Source: Candidatus Woesearchaeota archaeon (lineage in GTDB: Archaea > Nanobdellota > Nanobdellia > SCGC-AAA011-G17 > JACPIM01). From it: a stretch of 64,000 nt of DNA. Where the stretch lies: positions 48,870 to 112,869 of the forward strand of contig CAZELK010000003.1 in assembly GCA_964513145.1 (NCBI GenBank), given 5' to 3'. Made by a program: the position numbers and the translations under genes. Numbering within the stretch: the stretch's first letter is position 1; each line of letters opens with the position of its first letter. Positions 3,022 to 39,474 of the stretch are shown here, piece by piece. The notes beneath the pieces are model-generated. The model was not told where the DNA came from and made no database searches. It was given only the letters and a program-made list of their open reading frames with translations.

Positions 3022-3987
3022 ATGATTTGTTTAGGCATTGAGGGAACTAGTCATACATTTGGTTGTGGAATTGTGACTAGCAAGAAAAAGATTCTTTCTG
3101 ATGTTAGAGATATGCATACGACTGAAGAAGGAGGAATTATACCAGTTATTGCAGCAGAACACCATAAAAAAATAGCTAAACAAGTAATTGAAAAAGCAAT
3201 TTTGGAAGCGAGATATCCAAAAATAGATTTAATTAGTTTTTCAAGAAGTCCGGGATTACCGCCGAGCCTGCATGAAACTAGAAAAATTGCATTGGAATTA
3301 GCAAAAGAAATGAATTTGCCAGTTATTGGCGTTAACCATGTTGCTTCGCATTTAAGTTCTGCTCATTTTCATACTAATGTTAAAGACCCAGTATATCTTT
3401 TTGTTTCTGGAGCAAATACACAATTATTAATTTTAGAAAATAAGAAATTTCATATTATTGGAGAGTCTTTAGATATTGCAATAGGAAATGCTTTAGACAA
3501 ATTTGCAAGAGAAATTGGCTTGGGTTTTCCAGGCGGACCAAAAATTGAGGAACTAGCAAAAAATGGTTCTTATGTTGGCTTGCCTTATTTAGTGAAAGGA
3601 ATGGATTTGAGTTTTTCCGGCATAGTAACTTATCTTACAAATTTGTATAAGAAAAATTTTAAAAAAGAAGATTTATGTTTTTCTTTTCAAGAAACTTGTT
3701 TTGCTATGCTAACAGAAGTAGCTGAAAGGGCTATGGCAAACTGCGATAAAAAAGAATTAGTTTTAATTGGGGGAGTAGCTGCAAATAAAAGATTAAAGGA
3801 AATGTTAAATATCATGTGCAATGAAAGAAAGTCGAAATTTTATTCTGTTCCATTGAAATATAGCGGGGATCATGGCGCAATGATTGCTTATCAAGGTATT
3901 TTGGAATATAATTCAACTAAGAAAGTAAATACAGAAATAAATCCTTATGAAAGAGTTGATCAAATAACTGCTAACTGGAAATATTAG
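3022..3987 (+). CDS. kae1: tRNA N6-adenosine threonylcarbamoyltransferase Kae1 (KEOPS catalytic subunit)
   Basis: N-terminus MICLGIEGTSHTFGCGIV and the HVASHL metal-binding motif. The ORF-track start at 3010 is a TTG. The first in-frame ATG is 3022, which restores the typical Kae1 N-terminus. No fused or adjacent Bud32. Confidence 0.85.
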   Translation: MICLGIEGTSHTFGCGIVTSKKKILSDVRDMHTTEEGGIIPVIAAEHHKKIAKQVIEKAILEARYPKIDLISFSRSPGLPPSLHETRKIALELAKEMNLPVIGVNHVASHLSSAHFHTNVKDPVYLFVSGANTQLLILENKKFHIIGESLDIAIGNALDKFAREIGLGFPGGPKIEELAKNGSYVGLPYLVKGMDLSFSGIVTYLTNLYKKNFKKEDLCFSFQETCFAMLTEVAERAMANCDKKELVLIGGVAANKRLKEMLNIMCNERKSKFYSVPLKYSGDHGAMIAYQGILEYNSTKKVNTEINPYERVDQITANWKY

Positions 3988-4024: not shown

Positions 4025-4663
4025 CTAGCTTGCTTCTGCGAATTTTATTCTCAAATTTTTTAATTCCTTTTTAATTTTATTATGAATGGTTGCTGCTGAG
4101 ATGTCTAATTCTTTAGCAACTTTCTTCATACTTTTTTCTTCTTCAAAATACTTTTTAAATATATCTTTAGTTTGCGGTTCCTTGATGCTGTAATTTATAC
4201 ATTTTAATAATTCTTCTTTTTCTAGAATATCTACTTGCTTTTCTCTTTCTGATTCTACTATCTCTTCCAATTGAGACCAATTATTATTTGTAACATATCT
4301 ATGTCTTTTTTCTTTTCTTAGCGAGTCAAGTATTTTACTTTTTGCACATGAATAAACGTATGTTGAAAATCGGCTTTGATAATTATAATTTTCAATATTA
4401 TTTATGGCTTTTAATAATCCCAGATTTCCTATGCTTATCAAGTCTATAAAATTAATTTTACAACCTAGAAATTTATTCGCAACAGCACTAACAACCCAAA
4501 GATTATGATTTAGCAGTTTTTCTTTTATTTTTTCATCTTTTTTAGCTTTTTCTACCAATTCTTTTTCTTCTTCGTCATTTAGCCTGTGATATTTACTTAT
4601 TTCATTAAAATAAATCTCAATTACATCAACACCATTTTTTCTTTTATATTCCAATCTTTTCAT
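4025..4663 (-). CDS. sigma-70 family RNA polymerase sigma factor-like protein (regions 2 and 4 only; ECF/SigH-like size)
   Basis: NLWVVSAVANKF..FIDLISIGNLGLLKAINNIE..SRFSTYVY aligns with sigma region 2 (NLRLVVSIAKKY..FLDLIQEGNIGLMKAVEKFD..KFSTYA). C-terminal SMKKVAKELDISAATIHNKIKKELKNLR aligns with the region 4 HTH (TLEEVG..VTRERIRQIEAKALRKLR). ATG start; AT-rich like neighbours. Confidence 0.75.
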   Translation of the reverse strand: MKRLEYKRKNGVDVIEIYFNEISKYHRLNDEEEKELVEKAKKDEKIKEKLLNHNLWVVSAVANKFLGCKINFIDLISIGNLGLLKAINNIENYNYQSRFSTYVYSCAKSKILDSLRKEKRHRYVTNNNWSQLEEIVESEREKQVDILEKEELLKCINYSIKEPQTKDIFKKYFEEEKSMKKVAKELDISAATIHNKIKKELKNLRIKFAEAS

Positions 4664-5063
4664 TATTAGAAATTTAATTTTTGTATTTTAATATATTTCT
4701 ATCTAGAAAGAATTTTTTATTAATAATTTTAGAATTAAAAAAATAAAAAAACATAGGTAATTGGCTTGTATTTTATTTTTGGGCTATTAGTAACTGCAAG
4801 CTGAATACGTCGCCGAAGCTTCGTACTTACACTTCAGTCCTATCAAACTCATGTTCTTTGAGCGCCCTATATCTCTTTTCAAGTATAGCTTCCTCCTTAG
4901 ATGCTTTCAGGAGTTATCTATTAGAGCGTAGCTGCTCGGCCTGCCTTGTCAGACAACCGATACACCAGAGGCTCCGAATCATTGTTCCTCTCGTACTAAA
5001 TGATCCTTACCTTCAGATATTAAGCACTTCCAGTAGATATAATCCAAACTGTCTCACAACGTT

Positions 5064-5150
5064 ATGTTAAACGGGAGGAATTGAACCTCGCTTCGGCAAA
5101 TACATAGAGATGTTTTAATTTGCTTATGTATTTGCTTACAACCGTTGCTT
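5064..5150 (-). other. intron-like insertion (about 87 nt) in 23S domain V between GAGCTGGGTT and AACGTTGTGAGACAG (A-loop / helix 92-93 region)
   Basis: Canonical GGGTTTAGAACGTCGTGAGACAG is interrupted. The insert contains an 11-bp hairpin GCAAATACATA/TATGTATTTGC and AACGG/CCGTT at its ends. Confidence 0.55.
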
Positions 5151-5204
5151 AACCCAGCTCACGAACCATTTTAATGGGTGAACACCCCCACCCTTGGCTG
5201 CCTA

Positions 5205-5394
5205 CAGTTCGAAGGACAATTCGTGAAAATAGTTTTCCTTAAAGTCAAAATATTAGTGATTAATTTAATATAGTTCTAAATAGTTCTCAAATTAACATAC
5301 TAATTTTTAGACTTCTAAGTAATAGATATCGGAAATAAAAGACATTTTGACTTGAAAAACTATTGTTCGTATGATTGTCCTTCGACATTCTGCA
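5205..5394 (-). other. intron-like insertion or expansion (about 190 nt, very AT-rich) in the 23S 3' domain within the GGCTG...CAGCC helix loop
   Basis: Closed by a perfect 12-bp inverted repeat TCGAAGGACAAT/ATTGTCCTTCGA, with outer CAG/CTG pairing. Flanking rRNA sequence GTGGCTG / TAGGCAGCCAAGGGT is conserved. A further 31-nt hairpin insert sits at 5401-5432. Confidence 0.5.
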
Positions 5395-7034
5395 CAGCCA
5401 CTATATTGATACAAGAATTAACTTTATATCATGGATATGGTGAGCCGACGTCGAAGTAGCAAACAGCGCCATCGATATGAGCTCTTAGGCGCTACGACTC
5501 AGTTCTAGGGATCTAAGAGAAAATTTTTGATCTCTAAGATTATCCCCGAGATAGCTTTTCTGTCATACCTAGCCCCTATTAATAAGGACATAGGGGTTCG
5601 CTAGACCAGACTTTCGTCTCTGGATTTTTTAATAGTCAAAATCCAGTCAGGCCAACTTTTGCTCTTGCACTCTTCAGAAGATTTCCAAACTTCTTGAGTT
5701 GACCTTAGGGCCCTGTTGATATCTTTTCAACAGGGTGCCGCCCCAGCCAAACTGTCCAACTGCTGCTGTCCCAACTTTCGTTGGTAAGTAACATAAATTC
5801 TACAGAGTGGTATTTCAATTTTGTCTATCCTTAACCTAGCAGCTAAGGCATAGCGACTACCACCTATACTACACAGTAGAACATATATCACAACAACAGT
5901 CTACAGTAAAGTTCTACGGGGTCTTTTCTTCCCGCTGGAAGTCTCTGGCCTGCACACCAGAAGGGTATTTTCAGTGGATACTAACTAGGGACAGTGCGGA
6001 TCTCGTTACGCCATTCATGCGCGTCGTCATTCAAACGACAAGGTACAACGATATCATTAATCTCATTTCTCAGATTCAACTTTTCAGTTCAAAATGTGAA
6101 AGATATTTTTTGTTTAACAAACCCAAGGCAATTCTCTTAGATGAATGGCTTTTTCATCAAAATCTATAGCGAGATTAATGATAATTTCGCTACCTTAAGA
6201 GAATTATAGTCTAGAATTGTTAAAGATTTTTCTTACAACAAATATTCCCGCCGTTTACAAGTCCTTAGCCTCCTTGAAAAGAGGTTTTAGATACTTGCAC
6301 TGGGCAGACGTCACGTCTCATACACATCATTGCTGACTTGCGAGACGTTACGTTTTTGTTAAACAGTCGGACCCGCCTAGTCACTGCGCCCTGTAATTGC
6401 AGTTAGAAACTACAACCGCAGGGATTCCTTCTACCAAAGGTACGGAACTAAATTGCCGATTTCCCTTAGCTAGTTTACACCATCATACCTTAGGCTTCTC
6501 ACCTAGAGTACCTGTGTTGGTTCTGGGTATAATTATTCAAGATCCTTTTTAATTTCATTTTCACGGACTCCAGGCATCAACCAAATGGACCATAAGGTCC
6601 ACTATTCTTAAAATTAATCAAGTTCTCACCATTACGGTACTTCCTTGATTTGTTTTAATTAACATCCAAGACAATAGATGTTGGCTTAGCCCAAAATGTC
6701 TGAAACTAAACTTGTGTTACCACGCGTACTTGAATAGTAAAGGAATATTAACCTTTTTCCCATTCCCTAAGACCTATTAGGCCTTTGGTTAGGATTAACT
6801 TACTCTTAGCTGATTTGCATTGCTAAGAAACCCTTACTCTTACGGTATCAGGGAGTCTTACCCTGTATTGCTCCTACTACTACCAGGATTCTCATTTTTA
6901 TTAGGTCCACTATTTCTTTCGAAAAAGCTTCTACCCTAACAAAGCGCCTACCTACCACATAAGTTCTTTACTTAGTCTATAGTATCGGTAACTGATTTAG
7001 CCCCGTCCATCTTCAGGGCATATAACCTTGACAG

Positions 7035-7077
<43 letters not shown>

Positions 7078-8348
7078 TACCTCCCTGCTGTCTCTGGTTA
7101 TACACGCCTTTTACCCTTTAACACTTAATCAGTATTTAGGGACCTTAACTATAGTCTGGGTTGTTCCCCTCTCGCGATATAAGCTTAACCCACATCGCTT
7201 TTTCCTAAGGTCTCAGATGACAAAATATTCGGAGTTGGACGAAGAGGGGAGGAATTTCTTCCCCTTACCCCTAAATCCGTAGCTCTACAATTTTATCTAT
7301 CTCACTTAAGACTAGACTGAGGCCTATTTCGGTAGGAACCAGCTATAACCAGTCTCGATTGGCTTTTCACCCCTAATCTAAGGTTATACAAACAGATTTA
7401 CACTAGAACTGCTTCAGGCCTCCACAAGGTTTTACCCCTGCTTCACCTTACCCTAGAATAGATCGACTGGATTCGGGTAGCATCCAAGTGACTATAGGCA
7501 CTTTCATACCTAACCCCTCCTTGAAAAGTGTGGGTTTTTGGTTTCCCTTCAAGTTCAAACTGAAAAGTTTTTACTTTCGCCACTTAAATGCACTCCCTGG
7601 CTCGTTATTCGAAACGCACGATACAACTCCGAAGAGCAGTATCATTCTGTATTCATTAGGTTTCAGGATCTTTTCACTCCATGTTAAAGGTTCTTTTCAA
7701 CTTTCCTTCGCAGTACTCTTTGCTATCGGTCTCAAGTTATATTTAGAGTTGGAAGTTAATAGCTCCCACATTCACACCCCATATCCGAGGAGTGCTACTC
7801 TGGATACCTCGCAAGTCTATTAATCTGCTCTACAGGACTATCACCTTCTATGATGTCTTTTTCCAAAGAACTTTGAGCAGAATTAATTAAGATCAAAAGC
7901 AAGGTCCAAACACTACATTTCTATTTTATTTCTAAAATAGATTCAGTTTGCTCTATGTCGTTTTTTCTCGCTGATACTCACGACATCTATTTGATTTCTT
8001 TTCCTCCAGGTACTAAGACGTTTCAATTCCCCAGGTTCCCAATCTTTTCAGATTTAATGAGAAGTCTCATTCAGAAATCTCCAGTTCACAAGTTGCATGC
8101 ACTTCGCTGGAGCTTATCACAGCTTGCCATGTCCTTCTTCGGAACTTGAGCCAAGTCATCCACCTAATGAAGTAGGAAAAATACAGGCCAATTACCTATG
8201 CACGGAACTATATAAAAATAATTCCCTTGACCCAAAAAAATTTCTTTTTCTGAGCTGCATTTTAAACTTTTTAAAAAAAGTTTAATCAAAAATAAGAACC
8301 GAGGTTCTTTTCAACTCCTAAAAGTTGATTATATTTTTGAATATGAAA

Positions 8349-8495
8349 TGGACCCGTCGGGATGTTCATTACTTTTAATTTCTCAAAAGTTTATTTTGAA
8401 CCCGAGGCCCCTGCCTTGCAAGGGCAGTGCTCTATTGCCCCAAACTTTGTAAAAAGTTTTGATCAAATTATTTGACCAGACTGAGCTACGGGCCC
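8349..8495 (-). tRNA. tRNA-Ala(TGC) in the 16S-23S spacer, interrupted by two introns (D-loop about 40 nt; T-loop about 32 nt)
   Basis: Reverse complement GGGCCCGTAGCTCAGTCTGGTCA[..40 nt..]GAGCACTGCCCTTGCAAGGCAGGGGCCTCGGGTTCAAA[..32 nt..]TCCCGACGGGTCCA. G3:U70 identity pair; anticodon loop CTTGCAA; T-stem TCGGG/CCCGA. No encoded CCA. Confidence 0.8.
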
Positions 8496-8545
8496 ATTTA
8501 TTTAATTGAAATATGTAGGTTATTATGCATCTAGTAAAAAAATAA

Positions 8546-10090
<1,545 letters not shown>

Positions 10091-10377
10091 AATCGCAAGA
10101 CTTTTATGAAAATAAAAGATCTTTTTACTAGATTCTGCGCGACCTACATATTTGCATCATACTTAATGAAAATTAAGTACTCATAGACCCATATGTTTAT
10201 CATTGAAATCAAAACATATGGCTTCAATTTATGAATAGAATTGTGAATATTATCTTTAAGCCGCCATGAAAATTTTTAATCAAATTACTTCTATATAAAT
10301 GTTTCTTTTTAAATGGCTTTGGTGATATAAAATTCTTATAGCTGTTTAACTTGCAGATTAACGAAGTGATTATTGGT

Positions 10378-18958: not shown

Positions 18959-19157
18959 TTTAAACTTTTAAGGAAAAGTTTAATCAAAAACTTTTTTTGT
19001 TATAACTTTGTTGTAAATTGTCTTTTTAAAATTATTTGCTTTTGAAAATCTATTTGAAAACTAAAACAATTTTAAATATACTCAGTATAAAAAAATCGTT
19101 TTATTATCTATTAAGTTAAACAATAATCATTTAATAAAGCCCCATATTTTTTATGCT

Positions 19158-28536: not shown

Positions 28537-28624
28537 TGCAGTAGCAGGGATTTGAACCCTGGTCAGAGCCTTGGGAAGGCCCAATATTAGTTCTTTTATT
28601 GTCTAACCACTATACTACTACTGC
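28537..28624 (-). tRNA. tRNA-Gly(CCC) with a 13-15 nt non-canonical intron at the D-loop/D-stem junction
   Basis: Reverse complement GCAGTAG-TA-GTAT-AGTGGTTAG[ACAATAAAAGAACTA]ATAT-T-GGGCC-TTCCCAA-GGCTC-TGAC-CAGGG-TTCAAAT-CCCTG-CTACTGC-A. All stems pair. 88 nt total versus about 74 expected. Confidence 0.6.
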
Positions 28625-38791: not shown

Positions 38792-39322
38792 ATGAAAAGA
38801 ATTTTACAAGTCATTAATCTGCTTGGAAAAAAAAGAAATGAAATTAATATTTCTCAAGACTCTATTGAGTTCATTACTGCTATTTCCAAAAGTTTGAGAC
38901 CGGAAAATGTTTTAGAAATAGGGTGTTTTAATGGCTATTCTGCTTTATGGTTTTCTTTATTTGCCAAGAATGTTATTACATTAGAAATTGATAATAATAA
39001 TATAAAATCAGCTAAAGAAAACTTTTTTAAAGCTGGTTCTAAAAATATCAAGATAATTGAAGGCGATGCCAAGATAATTTTAAATAATTTAAAGAAAAAG
39101 TTTGAGATTATTTTTATAGACGGAAAAAAATCAGAATATAAAGAATATTTAGAATTATCTTTAAATCTTCTTAGTAAAAATGGGTTGATTTTTGCTGACA
39201 ATACTATTTCTCATAAAGATTTATTAAAGGAGTTTTTTGCTTATCTAGAAAAAAGCAGCTTGTATTATAAAGAACTTAATCTCGGGAAGGGATTAATAAT
39301 AATTTCTAATAAACTTTTATAA
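38792..39322 (+). CDS. class I SAM-dependent O-methyltransferase-like protein
   Basis: VLEIGCFNGYSALWFS motif I, ...IFIDGKK...; 176 aa. Confidence 0.6.
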   Translation: MKRILQVINLLGKKRNEINISQDSIEFITAISKSLRPENVLEIGCFNGYSALWFSLFAKNVITLEIDNNNIKSAKENFFKAGSKNIKIIEGDAKIILNNLKKKFEIIFIDGKKSEYKEYLELSLNLLSKNGLIFADNTISHKDLLKEFFAYLEKSSLYYKELNLGKGLIIISNKLL

Positions 39323-39474
39323 AAAGTTTAATCAAAGAACCTTTTAACGAAAAAAGCTTCACCAAAAATTGGAAAAGCTTAAGCAAAAATAAAATATTCT
39401 AAAAATTCACTTATTTTTTGAGTGAAAAATTACCAGATATTTATTTAAACAGATAAATGTAAAACGCGGATGAA

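Follow-up and report, generated by a model that had tools for sequence, protein, structure and literature searches.

Does the 16S-23S rRNA spacer of this archaeal DNA encode a working tRNA-Ala that is pieced together from three exons, or a tRNA gene that two insertions have put out of use? On the minus strand of the window (by which we mean the whole 64-kb stretch of DNA that was analysed), the exons of a tRNA-Ala can be recognised by eye starting at position 8495. An earlier, sequence-only reading of the region had proposed that a perfect tRNA-Ala(TGC) with a G3:U70 pair emerges only once inserts of about 40 nt and about 32 nt have been taken out of the D-loop and the T-loop, respectively. 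Analysis of the spliced product, of the exon-intron junctions, of related loci and of the surrounding operon leads us to think that the locus is very probably a functional tRNA-Ala(UGC) gene in an rRNA operon of the DPANN Woesearchaeota/Pacearchaeota type, carrying two bulge-helix-bulge (BHB) introns that would be spliced by proteins.

A spacer tRNA-Ala gene in three exons

Splicing in silico, followed by analysis with ARAGORN, revealed that the gene occupies window positions 8349-8495 of the minus strand exactly, a length of 147 nt, and that it consists of three exons encoding a tRNA-Ala(UGC) (Table 1). The inserts measure 41 and 32 nt, close to the sizes first proposed, and the T-loop junction reads TTCAAA|...|TCCCGA, just as the sequence-only reading had it. 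When both inserts were removed (8475..8435 and 8394..8363), ARAGORN recognised the resulting 74-nt product, GGGCCCGTAGCTCAGTCTGGTAGAGCACTGCCCTTGCAAGGCAGGGGCCTCGGGTTCAAATCCCGACGGGTCCA, as a perfect tRNA-Ala(tgc) cloverleaf bearing the alanine identity set: G3 opposite U70, the UGC anticodon and the A73 discriminator. Both excisions are needed for this call: with the D-loop insert alone removed, ARAGORN made no call, and with the T-loop insert alone removed, it reported a spurious tRNA-Pro. In the raw spacer no tRNA was detected by ARAGORN or by Rfam, the latter at the gathering threshold and at E<=10. The spliced product differs by a single D-loop base from an uninterrupted natural gene (locus L041), and its predicted junctions read ...CAGUCUGG^UAGAGC... 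(GG^UA) and ...GGUUCAAA^UCCCGA... (AA^UC).

The exons have a G+C content of 65%, versus 27% for the D-loop insert and 19% for the T-loop insert, in a genome of roughly 28% G+C. CCA is not encoded at the 3' end of the gene, where TTTC comes next. There is no intron at the canonical 37/38 position, and both introns are non-canonical. Group I and group II self-splicing introns possess a catalytic core of hundreds of nucleotides; the size of the two inserts, together with the lack of any Rfam intron-family match at gathering or permissive thresholds, rules out a self-splicing intron of either group. A split or permuted tRNA gene is ruled out too, the three exons being colinear within the 147 nt.

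Table 1. Coordinates of the tRNA-Ala gene, its splice motifs and other features of the window and of related loci
Feature	Sequence	Position	Strand	Description
Exon 1	window	8476..8495	-	20 nt: acceptor 5' strand, D-stem 5' strand, D-loop to G19
Intron 1	window	8435..8475	-	41 nt, D-loop, between G19 and U20
Exon 2	window	8395..8434	-	40 nt: U20-A59 with UGC anticodon arm; invariant in relatives
Intron 2	window	8363..8394	-	32 nt, T-loop, 59/60
Exon 3	window	8349..8362	-	14 nt: U60, T-stem 3' strand, acceptor 3' strand, A73
D-loop central helix, exon strand GUCU	window	8478..8481	-	then bulge GG|U (8477-8475)
D-loop central helix, intron strand GGGC	window	8437..8440	-	then bulge AA|U (8436-8434)
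D-loop inner helix CAAAU/GUUUG	window	8474-8470 with 8445-8441	-	5 bp
T-loop central helix, exon strand UUCA	window	8397..8400	-	nt 54-57; then bulge AA|A (8396-8394)
T-loop central helix, intron strand UGAA	window	8365..8368	-	then bulge CA|U (8364-8362)
16S rRNA (SSU_rRNA_archaea)	window	8546..10089	-	Rfam
23S rRNA (LSU_rRNA_archaea)	window	4767..8187	-	Rfam
16S BHB intron	window	9361..9287	-	75 nt, after E. coli nt 793
23S BHB intron	window	6242..6211	-	32 nt, after E. coli nt 1912 (helix 69 loop)
23S BHB intron	window	6184..6046	-	139 nt, after E. coli nt 1938
23S BHB intron	window	5541..5505	-	37 nt, after E. coli nt 2449 (peptidyl-transferase ring)
23S BHB intron	window	5432..5401	-	32 nt, after E. 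coli nt 2521
23S BHB intron	window	5387..5202	-	186 nt, after E. coli nt 2534
23S BHB intron	window	5147..5064	-	84 nt, after E. coli nt 2588
16S processing stem, 5' strand	window	10118..10160	-	BHB-like; predicted cut after 10135
16S processing stem, 3' strand	window	8502..8544	-	BHB-like; predicted cut before 8522, leaving the tRNA outside
Hairpin element UUUGAUUAAACUUUU-loop-AAAAGUUUAAA	window	8261..8300	-	spacer copy; possibly related to D-loop intron
14-mer UUGAUUAAACUUUU	window	8276-8289	-	tRNA-23S spacer
14-mer UUGAUUAAACUUUU	window	18974-18987	-	just upstream of RFC gene
14-mer UUGAUUAAACUUUU	window	39322-39335	-	just past a gene end
14-mer UUGAUUAAACUUUU	L013	26-39		inside D-loop intron
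14-mer UUGAUUAAACUUUU	L021	11160-11173		inside D-loop intron
14-mer UUGAUUAAACUUUU	L026	1098-1111		inside D-loop intron
14-mer UUGAUUAAACUUUU	L036	736-749		inside D-loop intron
Intron at E. coli 2449/2450 site	L026	4240-4845		606 nt; contains ORF 4289-4834
Insert corresponding to 84-nt 23S intron	L026	LSU nt 3651-3734		
Archaeal RNase P RNA gene	L021	8696-9003		upstream of 16S
Archaeal RNase P RNA gene	L046	4018-4382		upstream of 16S
Second tRNA	window	28537-28624	-	ARAGORN call Ser(ACU)
Sigma-70-like ORF	window	4028-4663	-	212 aa, directly downstream of 23S

In the canonical geometry of archaeal introns, each strand of the motif runs, from 5' to 3', through a 4-nt helix strand and a 3-nt bulge, with the cut falling after the second base of the bulge. 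Folding showed that both tRNA-Ala junctions can form such a BHB, with all four pairs of the central helix present between two 3-nt bulges lying right at the intron boundaries, and a blind BHB scan found both of them. At random fixed positions of the operon, a 4/4 helix arises with a chance of 0.025, or 0.002 if at least five flanking pairs are demanded as well. This fixed-boundary test took the place of a first BHB scan that had demanded an exon-exon outer helix and had missed most of the rRNA inserts described below (12 observed versus 4.6 expected). That excision should give so perfect a tRNA is far beyond chance.

The T-loop motif uses the 5-bp T-stem as its outer helix. Its inner helix opens with one U-A pair and then a 2x1 internal loop before a run of 6 bp, a feature that counts against our preferred explanation. 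The D-loop motif is a relaxed one: G15-U16-C17-U17a pairs with the GGGC of the intron to give a central helix that includes two G.U pairs, and the outer helix, formed by the D-stem, is reached across a 1x1 mismatch of A14 and A21. The D-loop BHB places the cut after G19 (19/20), and cutting at 20/21 would give an identical product. Other registers were tried and rejected. At the T-loop, a GUUC/GAAC helix with a 34-nt excision leaves a T-loop of 5 nt and is impossible in relatives that have G57; at the D-loop, parses that leave 10-11-nt loops score lower and do not match the intron-less relatives.

A conformer containing the cloverleaf and both BHBs has a calculated energy of -38.8 kcal/mol, versus -53.4 kcal/mol for the unconstrained fold. 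The BHB conformer is thus less stable than the optimal fold, and folding energy is no argument in its favour. In the D-arm, the intron can form two competing hairpins, one of which buries the 5' splice site. Might it be, then, that only the T-loop intron is a standard substrate of the splicing endonuclease EndA, and that the D-loop insert leaves in a different register, with the help of an unfolding factor, or by a different route, such as the HBh' type in which the 3' bulge alone is recognised and the 5' cut is set in some other way? The two-hairpin D-arm, in which the 5' splice site is paired, is better than the BHB by about 6 kcal/mol; the central helix has its two G.U pairs in the window and just three pairs in loci L046 and L043; and the D-loop HBh' intron of M. 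kandleri is poorly cut by narrow-specificity enzymes (PMC5829648). Against these points, a full parse with a central helix, two bulges and an inner helix is found in all four types of D-loop intron, yielding the expected D-loop each time, and the same layout with a 1x1 mismatch recurs in the 16S processing stem of the operon. On balance, we regard a separate route for the D-loop insert as unlikely.

If both are EndA substrates, the established archaeal RNA-processing pathway of EndA, RtcB, RNase P, RNase Z and CCA addition suggests how the tRNA would be made, and from it we infer the splicing itself, the enzymes and the order of events. In the primary transcript, each junction would adopt a 4-bp helix with a 3-nt bulge on either side. 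At the T-loop intron, U54-A57 would supply a strand of the central helix, the outer helix being the T-stem; at the D-loop intron, G15-U17a and the D-stem, separated by the A14/A21 mismatch, would be employed. EndA would then cut both strands, each time after the second base of the bulge; a ligase of the RtcB type would join the three exons, the introns probably being circularised; and the ends would be trimmed by RNase P and RNase Z before addition of CCA. Among 69 ORFs of the 64-kb window, Pfam searches gave no match to PF01974, PF02778 or RtcB, and an EndA query sequence had no match in the window. Enzymes able to cut at non-canonical positions are of the (alpha-beta)2 or epsilon2 type, or of the alpha4 type with an L3 loop. 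That relaxed, non-canonical introns need an endonuclease of broad specificity agrees with published work (PMC5829648).

Introns in related spacer genes

The middle exon was used as a search pattern against species-representative genomes and JGI metagenome contigs; because it sits between the two inserts, loci were retrieved whatever their introns. Once the intron-less genes of Methanobrevibacter and Methanosphaera had been set aside, 41 DPANN-type spacer tRNA-Ala loci remained, a sample skewed towards conserved genes by the need for a near-identical middle exon. The relatives are metagenome sequences of the Woesearchaeota/Nanoarchaeota type, and in all loci checked the tRNA-Ala lies between 16S and 23S. 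Seven of the 41 loci have no intron, 28 have a T-loop (59/60) intron of 11-42 nt alone, six have both a D-loop and a T-loop intron, and none has a D-loop intron alone. In a MAFFT alignment, the introns appear as clean, exact gaps against the intron-less genes, which Rfam scores at 70-77 bits, while genes with a T-loop intron receive partial Rfam calls. Together with the excision test and the covariation described below, this establishes the proposed positions of the two introns, in the D-loop and at 59/60 of the T-loop. The view that such an arrangement is rare, however, was overstated for this lineage: 34 of the 41 loci have the 59/60 intron, and both 20/21 and 59/60 were already on the published list of intron positions (PMC4090602).

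The window and its relatives L046 and L021, whose 16S identities to the window are 97.3% and 92.5%, have the same base at 74 of 74 exon positions. The introns of these three loci, by contrast, are only 59-69% (D-loop) and 73-88% (T-loop) identical. Among the 18 distinct T-loop introns, that of the window included, 15 combine a perfect 4-bp helix right at 59/60 with an outer helix formed by the T-stem. In the remaining three (the L010, L011 and L037 types), the helix is off by one base, implying a 4-nt bulge. When the sequences were aligned by their splice sites, 97.8% of cells could pair in register, as against at most 67.8% when the strands were slid. The pair formed by exon base 57 with the intron is A-U in five junction types and G-C in four.

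The T-loop introns vary in form as well. In six loci (L010, L011, L014, L030, L037 and L050), a CGAA strand is shifted by one base, so that a 4-nt 3' bulge, GAG|U, is implied if the canonical 7-nt T-loop is restored. At the short end of the range, the 11-12-nt introns of L001, L023, L024, L025, L031, L032, L035, L038 and L040 amount to approximately a UGAA strand, the bulges and a loop of 4-5 nt, an arrangement of the bulge-helix-loop type.

D-loop introns share one position in the window, L046 and L021 types; that of L043, 22 nt long and unrelated, lies one base further on. For each of these four types, the best-scoring BHB parse restores the D-loop of the intron-less genes (AGUCUGGUA or AGCGGUA). 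Compensatory changes are seen in the central helix, where U.G becomes U-A, and at the first inner pair, where C-G becomes U-A, although with three to four D-intron types in all this covariation is thin evidence. The nearest relative that lacks a D-loop intron, L051 (87% 16S identity), carries the T-loop intron only, and this indicates that the D-loop intron was gained recently in a narrow clade, whereas the 59/60 intron is widespread. The comparison with relatives is our strongest line of evidence, and it lends strong support to the reading of both inserts as non-canonical BHB introns.

These data also bear on two further explanations. In the first, the spacer holds a pseudogene, a tRNA-Ala wrecked by two AT-rich insertions from which no tRNA is made, as might be suspected from the silence of the standard tRNA finders and from a BHB conformer that is not the minimum-energy fold. 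Decay of this sort is at odds with diverging inserts between exons that stay unchanged in relatives of as little as 92.5% 16S identity, with BHB pairs maintained through compensatory changes, with a two-insert design that persists over a clade and a 59/60 insert shared by most loci, and with the lack of any second tRNA-Ala elsewhere in the 64-kb window. We judge it very improbable that the gene is dead. In the second, splicing does not occur and the mature tRNA keeps both inserts as expansions of its D- and T-loops, each insert forming a stable hairpin that could protrude from its loop. The elbow made by the D- and T-loops is a requirement of tRNA structure, and it is here that the inserts lie, parting G18-G19 from A21 and A59 from U60; moreover, orthologues with no insert coexist with others whose inserts span 11-42 nt, and the specific 3-nt-bulge geometry would be purposeless in a segment that is kept. 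Retention in the mature tRNA thus strikes us as barely credible, and removal of both introns by splicing remains our preferred reading.

Introns and processing stems of the rRNA operon

Rfam places archaeal SSU and LSU rRNA genes on either side of the tRNA and on the same strand, in keeping with the original description of an archaeal 16S-23S spacer, and the 16S-tRNA(Ala)-23S layout is the same in relatives. Defined against insert-less relatives and numbered according to E. coli rrnB, one insert in 16S and six in 23S bring the total for the operon to nine introns. In all seven rRNA inserts, a 4/4 helix with 3-nt bulges lies at the boundaries, and inner helices have 4-14 bp. All seven sit in universally conserved functional cores, and with them removed, the 23S and 16S measure 2,911 and 1,469 nt. 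BHB splicing would thus be routine in this organism, as a homing-endonuclease intron in relatives and a second interrupted tRNA in the window (both described below) also suggest, and this speaks against a pseudogene in the spacer. Rfam found no group I intron in the operon. Group I and BHB introns have been described as co-occurring in the rRNA genes of Woesearchaeota and Pacearchaeota (PMC6125680).

The loci L026 and L036 carry inserts at the window's rRNA sites. At the E. coli 2449/2450 site, the window has a mini-intron of 37 nt, versus 606 nt in both of these loci, where the intron codes for a LAGLIDADG homing endonuclease (PF14528, E = 1e-9 in L026). The 16S nt-793 site is filled in the window, in L021 and in the distant L048; as it is empty in L046, despite 97.3% 16S identity, this intron appears to have been recently gained or lost. 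The 84-nt 23S intron includes a T-arm-like sequence, GAGGUUCAAUUCCUC, kept as GAGGUUUAAGUCCUC in its L026 counterpart.

Because the tRNA sits in the spacer, the sequence-only reading had held that rRNA maturation depends on tRNA splicing. The 16S rRNA has a processing stem of its own, however, and that stem excludes the tRNA. It comprises helices of 12 bp and 15 bp with a BHB-like motif between them, whose central helix, GCGC/GCAU, contains one C.A mismatch and whose bulges are AG|A and AA|U; the 1x1-mismatch layout is common to this motif and to the D-loop intron. The 3' cut of the stem falls 27 nt upstream of the tRNA-Ala, so that tRNA splicing would not be needed for 16S excision. The 23S flanks can pair over 14 bp at the gene ends, and in these AT-rich flanks a search for a BHB in the 23S processing stem gave only ambiguous candidates. 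As far as the sequence goes, the maturation of rRNA and tRNA presumably shares an enzyme, and neither process is made to depend on the other. Given nine BHB introns per transcript, production of ribosomes and of tRNA-Ala would presumably both hinge on that one enzyme.

A gene for archaeal RNase P RNA adjoins the operon upstream of 16S in L021 and L046. The window instead has an Nre-family gene at this place, and no RNase P RNA was called by Rfam.

A possible origin of the D-loop intron, and its setting

No convincing likeness between introns was found within the operon, besides that of the D-loop intron to an element of the neighbouring spacer. This spacer element, a hairpin, lies between the tRNA and the 23S gene, about 75-100 nt downstream. 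The intron holds two hairpins, one of which, AAACUUUUU-loop-AAAGUUU, resembles the spacer element (z = 5.8 versus shuffles) and looks like a degenerate copy of a dispersed element. A 14-mer of the spacer element, UUGAUUAAACUUUU, has three exact copies in the window, all of them intergenic and on the minus strand (Table 1). Each L021-type locus has a single copy of the same 14-mer, located within its D-loop intron. The best match in the window to the L021-type D-loop intron is the spacer element (score 45, versus a 99.9th percentile of 38); the window's own D-loop intron is degenerate and does not rise above the 99.9th percentile of the genome background. The three genomes with the D-loop intron also have the spacer hairpin, and L051, which has no such intron, lacks it. 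The dispersed element has the form UUUGAUUAAACUUUU-loop-AAAAGUUUA(A); could it be a terminator, a promoter or a binding site?

Taken together, these similarities are suggestive, but not proof, of a relationship between the D-loop intron and the dispersed element, and convergence of AT-rich palindromes is an alternative source of the likeness. It is possible, if somewhat doubtful, that the intron arose by insertion or duplication of the element. Were this the case, a donor sequence could be named for a newly gained, non-canonical tRNA intron of an archaeon, and the operon, with its nine BHB introns and BHB processing stems, would be a hot spot in which elements become fixed wherever a BHB can form with the flanking exon. 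The resemblance gives a testable approach to the gain of introns by archaeal tRNA genes.

There are several known systems with which this gene can be compared. In plastids and cyanobacteria, the tRNA-Ile and tRNA-Ala genes of the rRNA spacer bear introns, and the present gene is likewise an intron-bearing tRNA-Ala(UGC) between 16S and 23S. The plastid and cyanobacterial introns, however, are long, lie in the anticodon loop and belong to self-splicing group II (or group I), while here the introns are of 32-41 nt, are predicted to be spliced by proteins and lie in the D- and T-loops. A closer likeness is to the non-canonical and multiple BHB tRNA introns of Thermoproteales, other Crenarchaeota, Nanoarchaeota and ARMAN/Micrarchaeota, which are also short, lie outside 37/38, are bounded by strict or relaxed BHB motifs and may occur several to a gene. 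Unlike these, the present introns belong to a very AT-rich host of the Woesearchaeota/Pacearchaeota type and to an rRNA-spacer tRNA-Ala, have no accompanying 37/38 intron and involve a predicted D-loop cut at 19/20. They share their motif, and presumably the endonuclease and ligase, with archaeal rRNA BHB introns and with the processing stems of pre-16S and pre-23S rRNA, but unlike rRNA introns they sit in a tRNA between the rRNA genes. The transposition of tRNA introns in Thermoproteales (Fujishima et al. 2010), in the summary given in PMC4090602, offers a parallel in that an intron resembles a sequence elsewhere in the genome, suggesting gain by a mobile or duplicated element; compared with that summary, the look-alike here is a dispersed intergenic hairpin and not another tRNA intron.

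Introns of this kind were thus already known: their positions are catalogued, and disrupted tRNAs, together with broad-specificity EndA variants, have been reported for DPANN (PMC5829648). The 59/60 intron of ARMAN-2 pre-tRNA-Cys and the D-loop intron of M. kandleri tRNA-Glu have served as experimental substrates (PMC5829648). Kaneta et al. (PMC5829648), who had one genome each of Woesearchaeota and Pacearchaeota in their gene-prediction set, linked an alpha4-type EndA with an extra L3 loop, found in several DPANN lineages, to more frequent tRNA gene disruption, and took the incomplete tRNA sets of some DPANN and Asgard genomes as a sign of undetected disrupted genes. The spacer tRNA-Ala is a case of just such a gene. 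What is distinctive about it is its host lineage, its location in the rRNA spacer, the lack of an intron at the canonical position and an operon that holds nine introns in all.

Taken alone, a further archaeal tRNA whose non-canonical BHB introns lie at catalogued positions is of modest importance, and the operon context and the lead on intron origin are of somewhat greater interest than the tRNA introns themselves. The 41 loci, with zero, one or two introns in one orthologous gene, constitute a natural experiment, and T-loop introns of 11-42 nt define the range tolerated by the DPANN endonuclease.

The gene content of the window is archaeal (Nre, RFC, CDP-archaeol synthase, L15e and PTH2), and the MAGs that come closest to it in public data carry the label Candidatus Woesearchaeota or, in GTDB style, Nanoarchaeota. 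The only other tRNA in the window, called Ser(ACU) by ARAGORN, is more likely to be a tRNA-Gly(CCC) with an AT-rich insert of 16-17 nt beside position 26. Excision of 15-18 nt produces a clean Gly(CCC) call, and the sole strict BHB parse takes out 16 nt, leaving one extra base. Since ARAGORN and Rfam miss the tRNA-Ala gene and ARAGORN mis-assigns Gly as Ser, the tRNA complements of such genomes will be under-called, a problem against which Kaneta et al. cautioned for DPANN and Asgard genomes. Finally, the ORF directly downstream of the 23S gene matches regions 1.2, 2 and 4 of bacterial sigma-70 (Pfam E = 3.5e-11 for region 2), a match that is unexpected in an archaeal genome.
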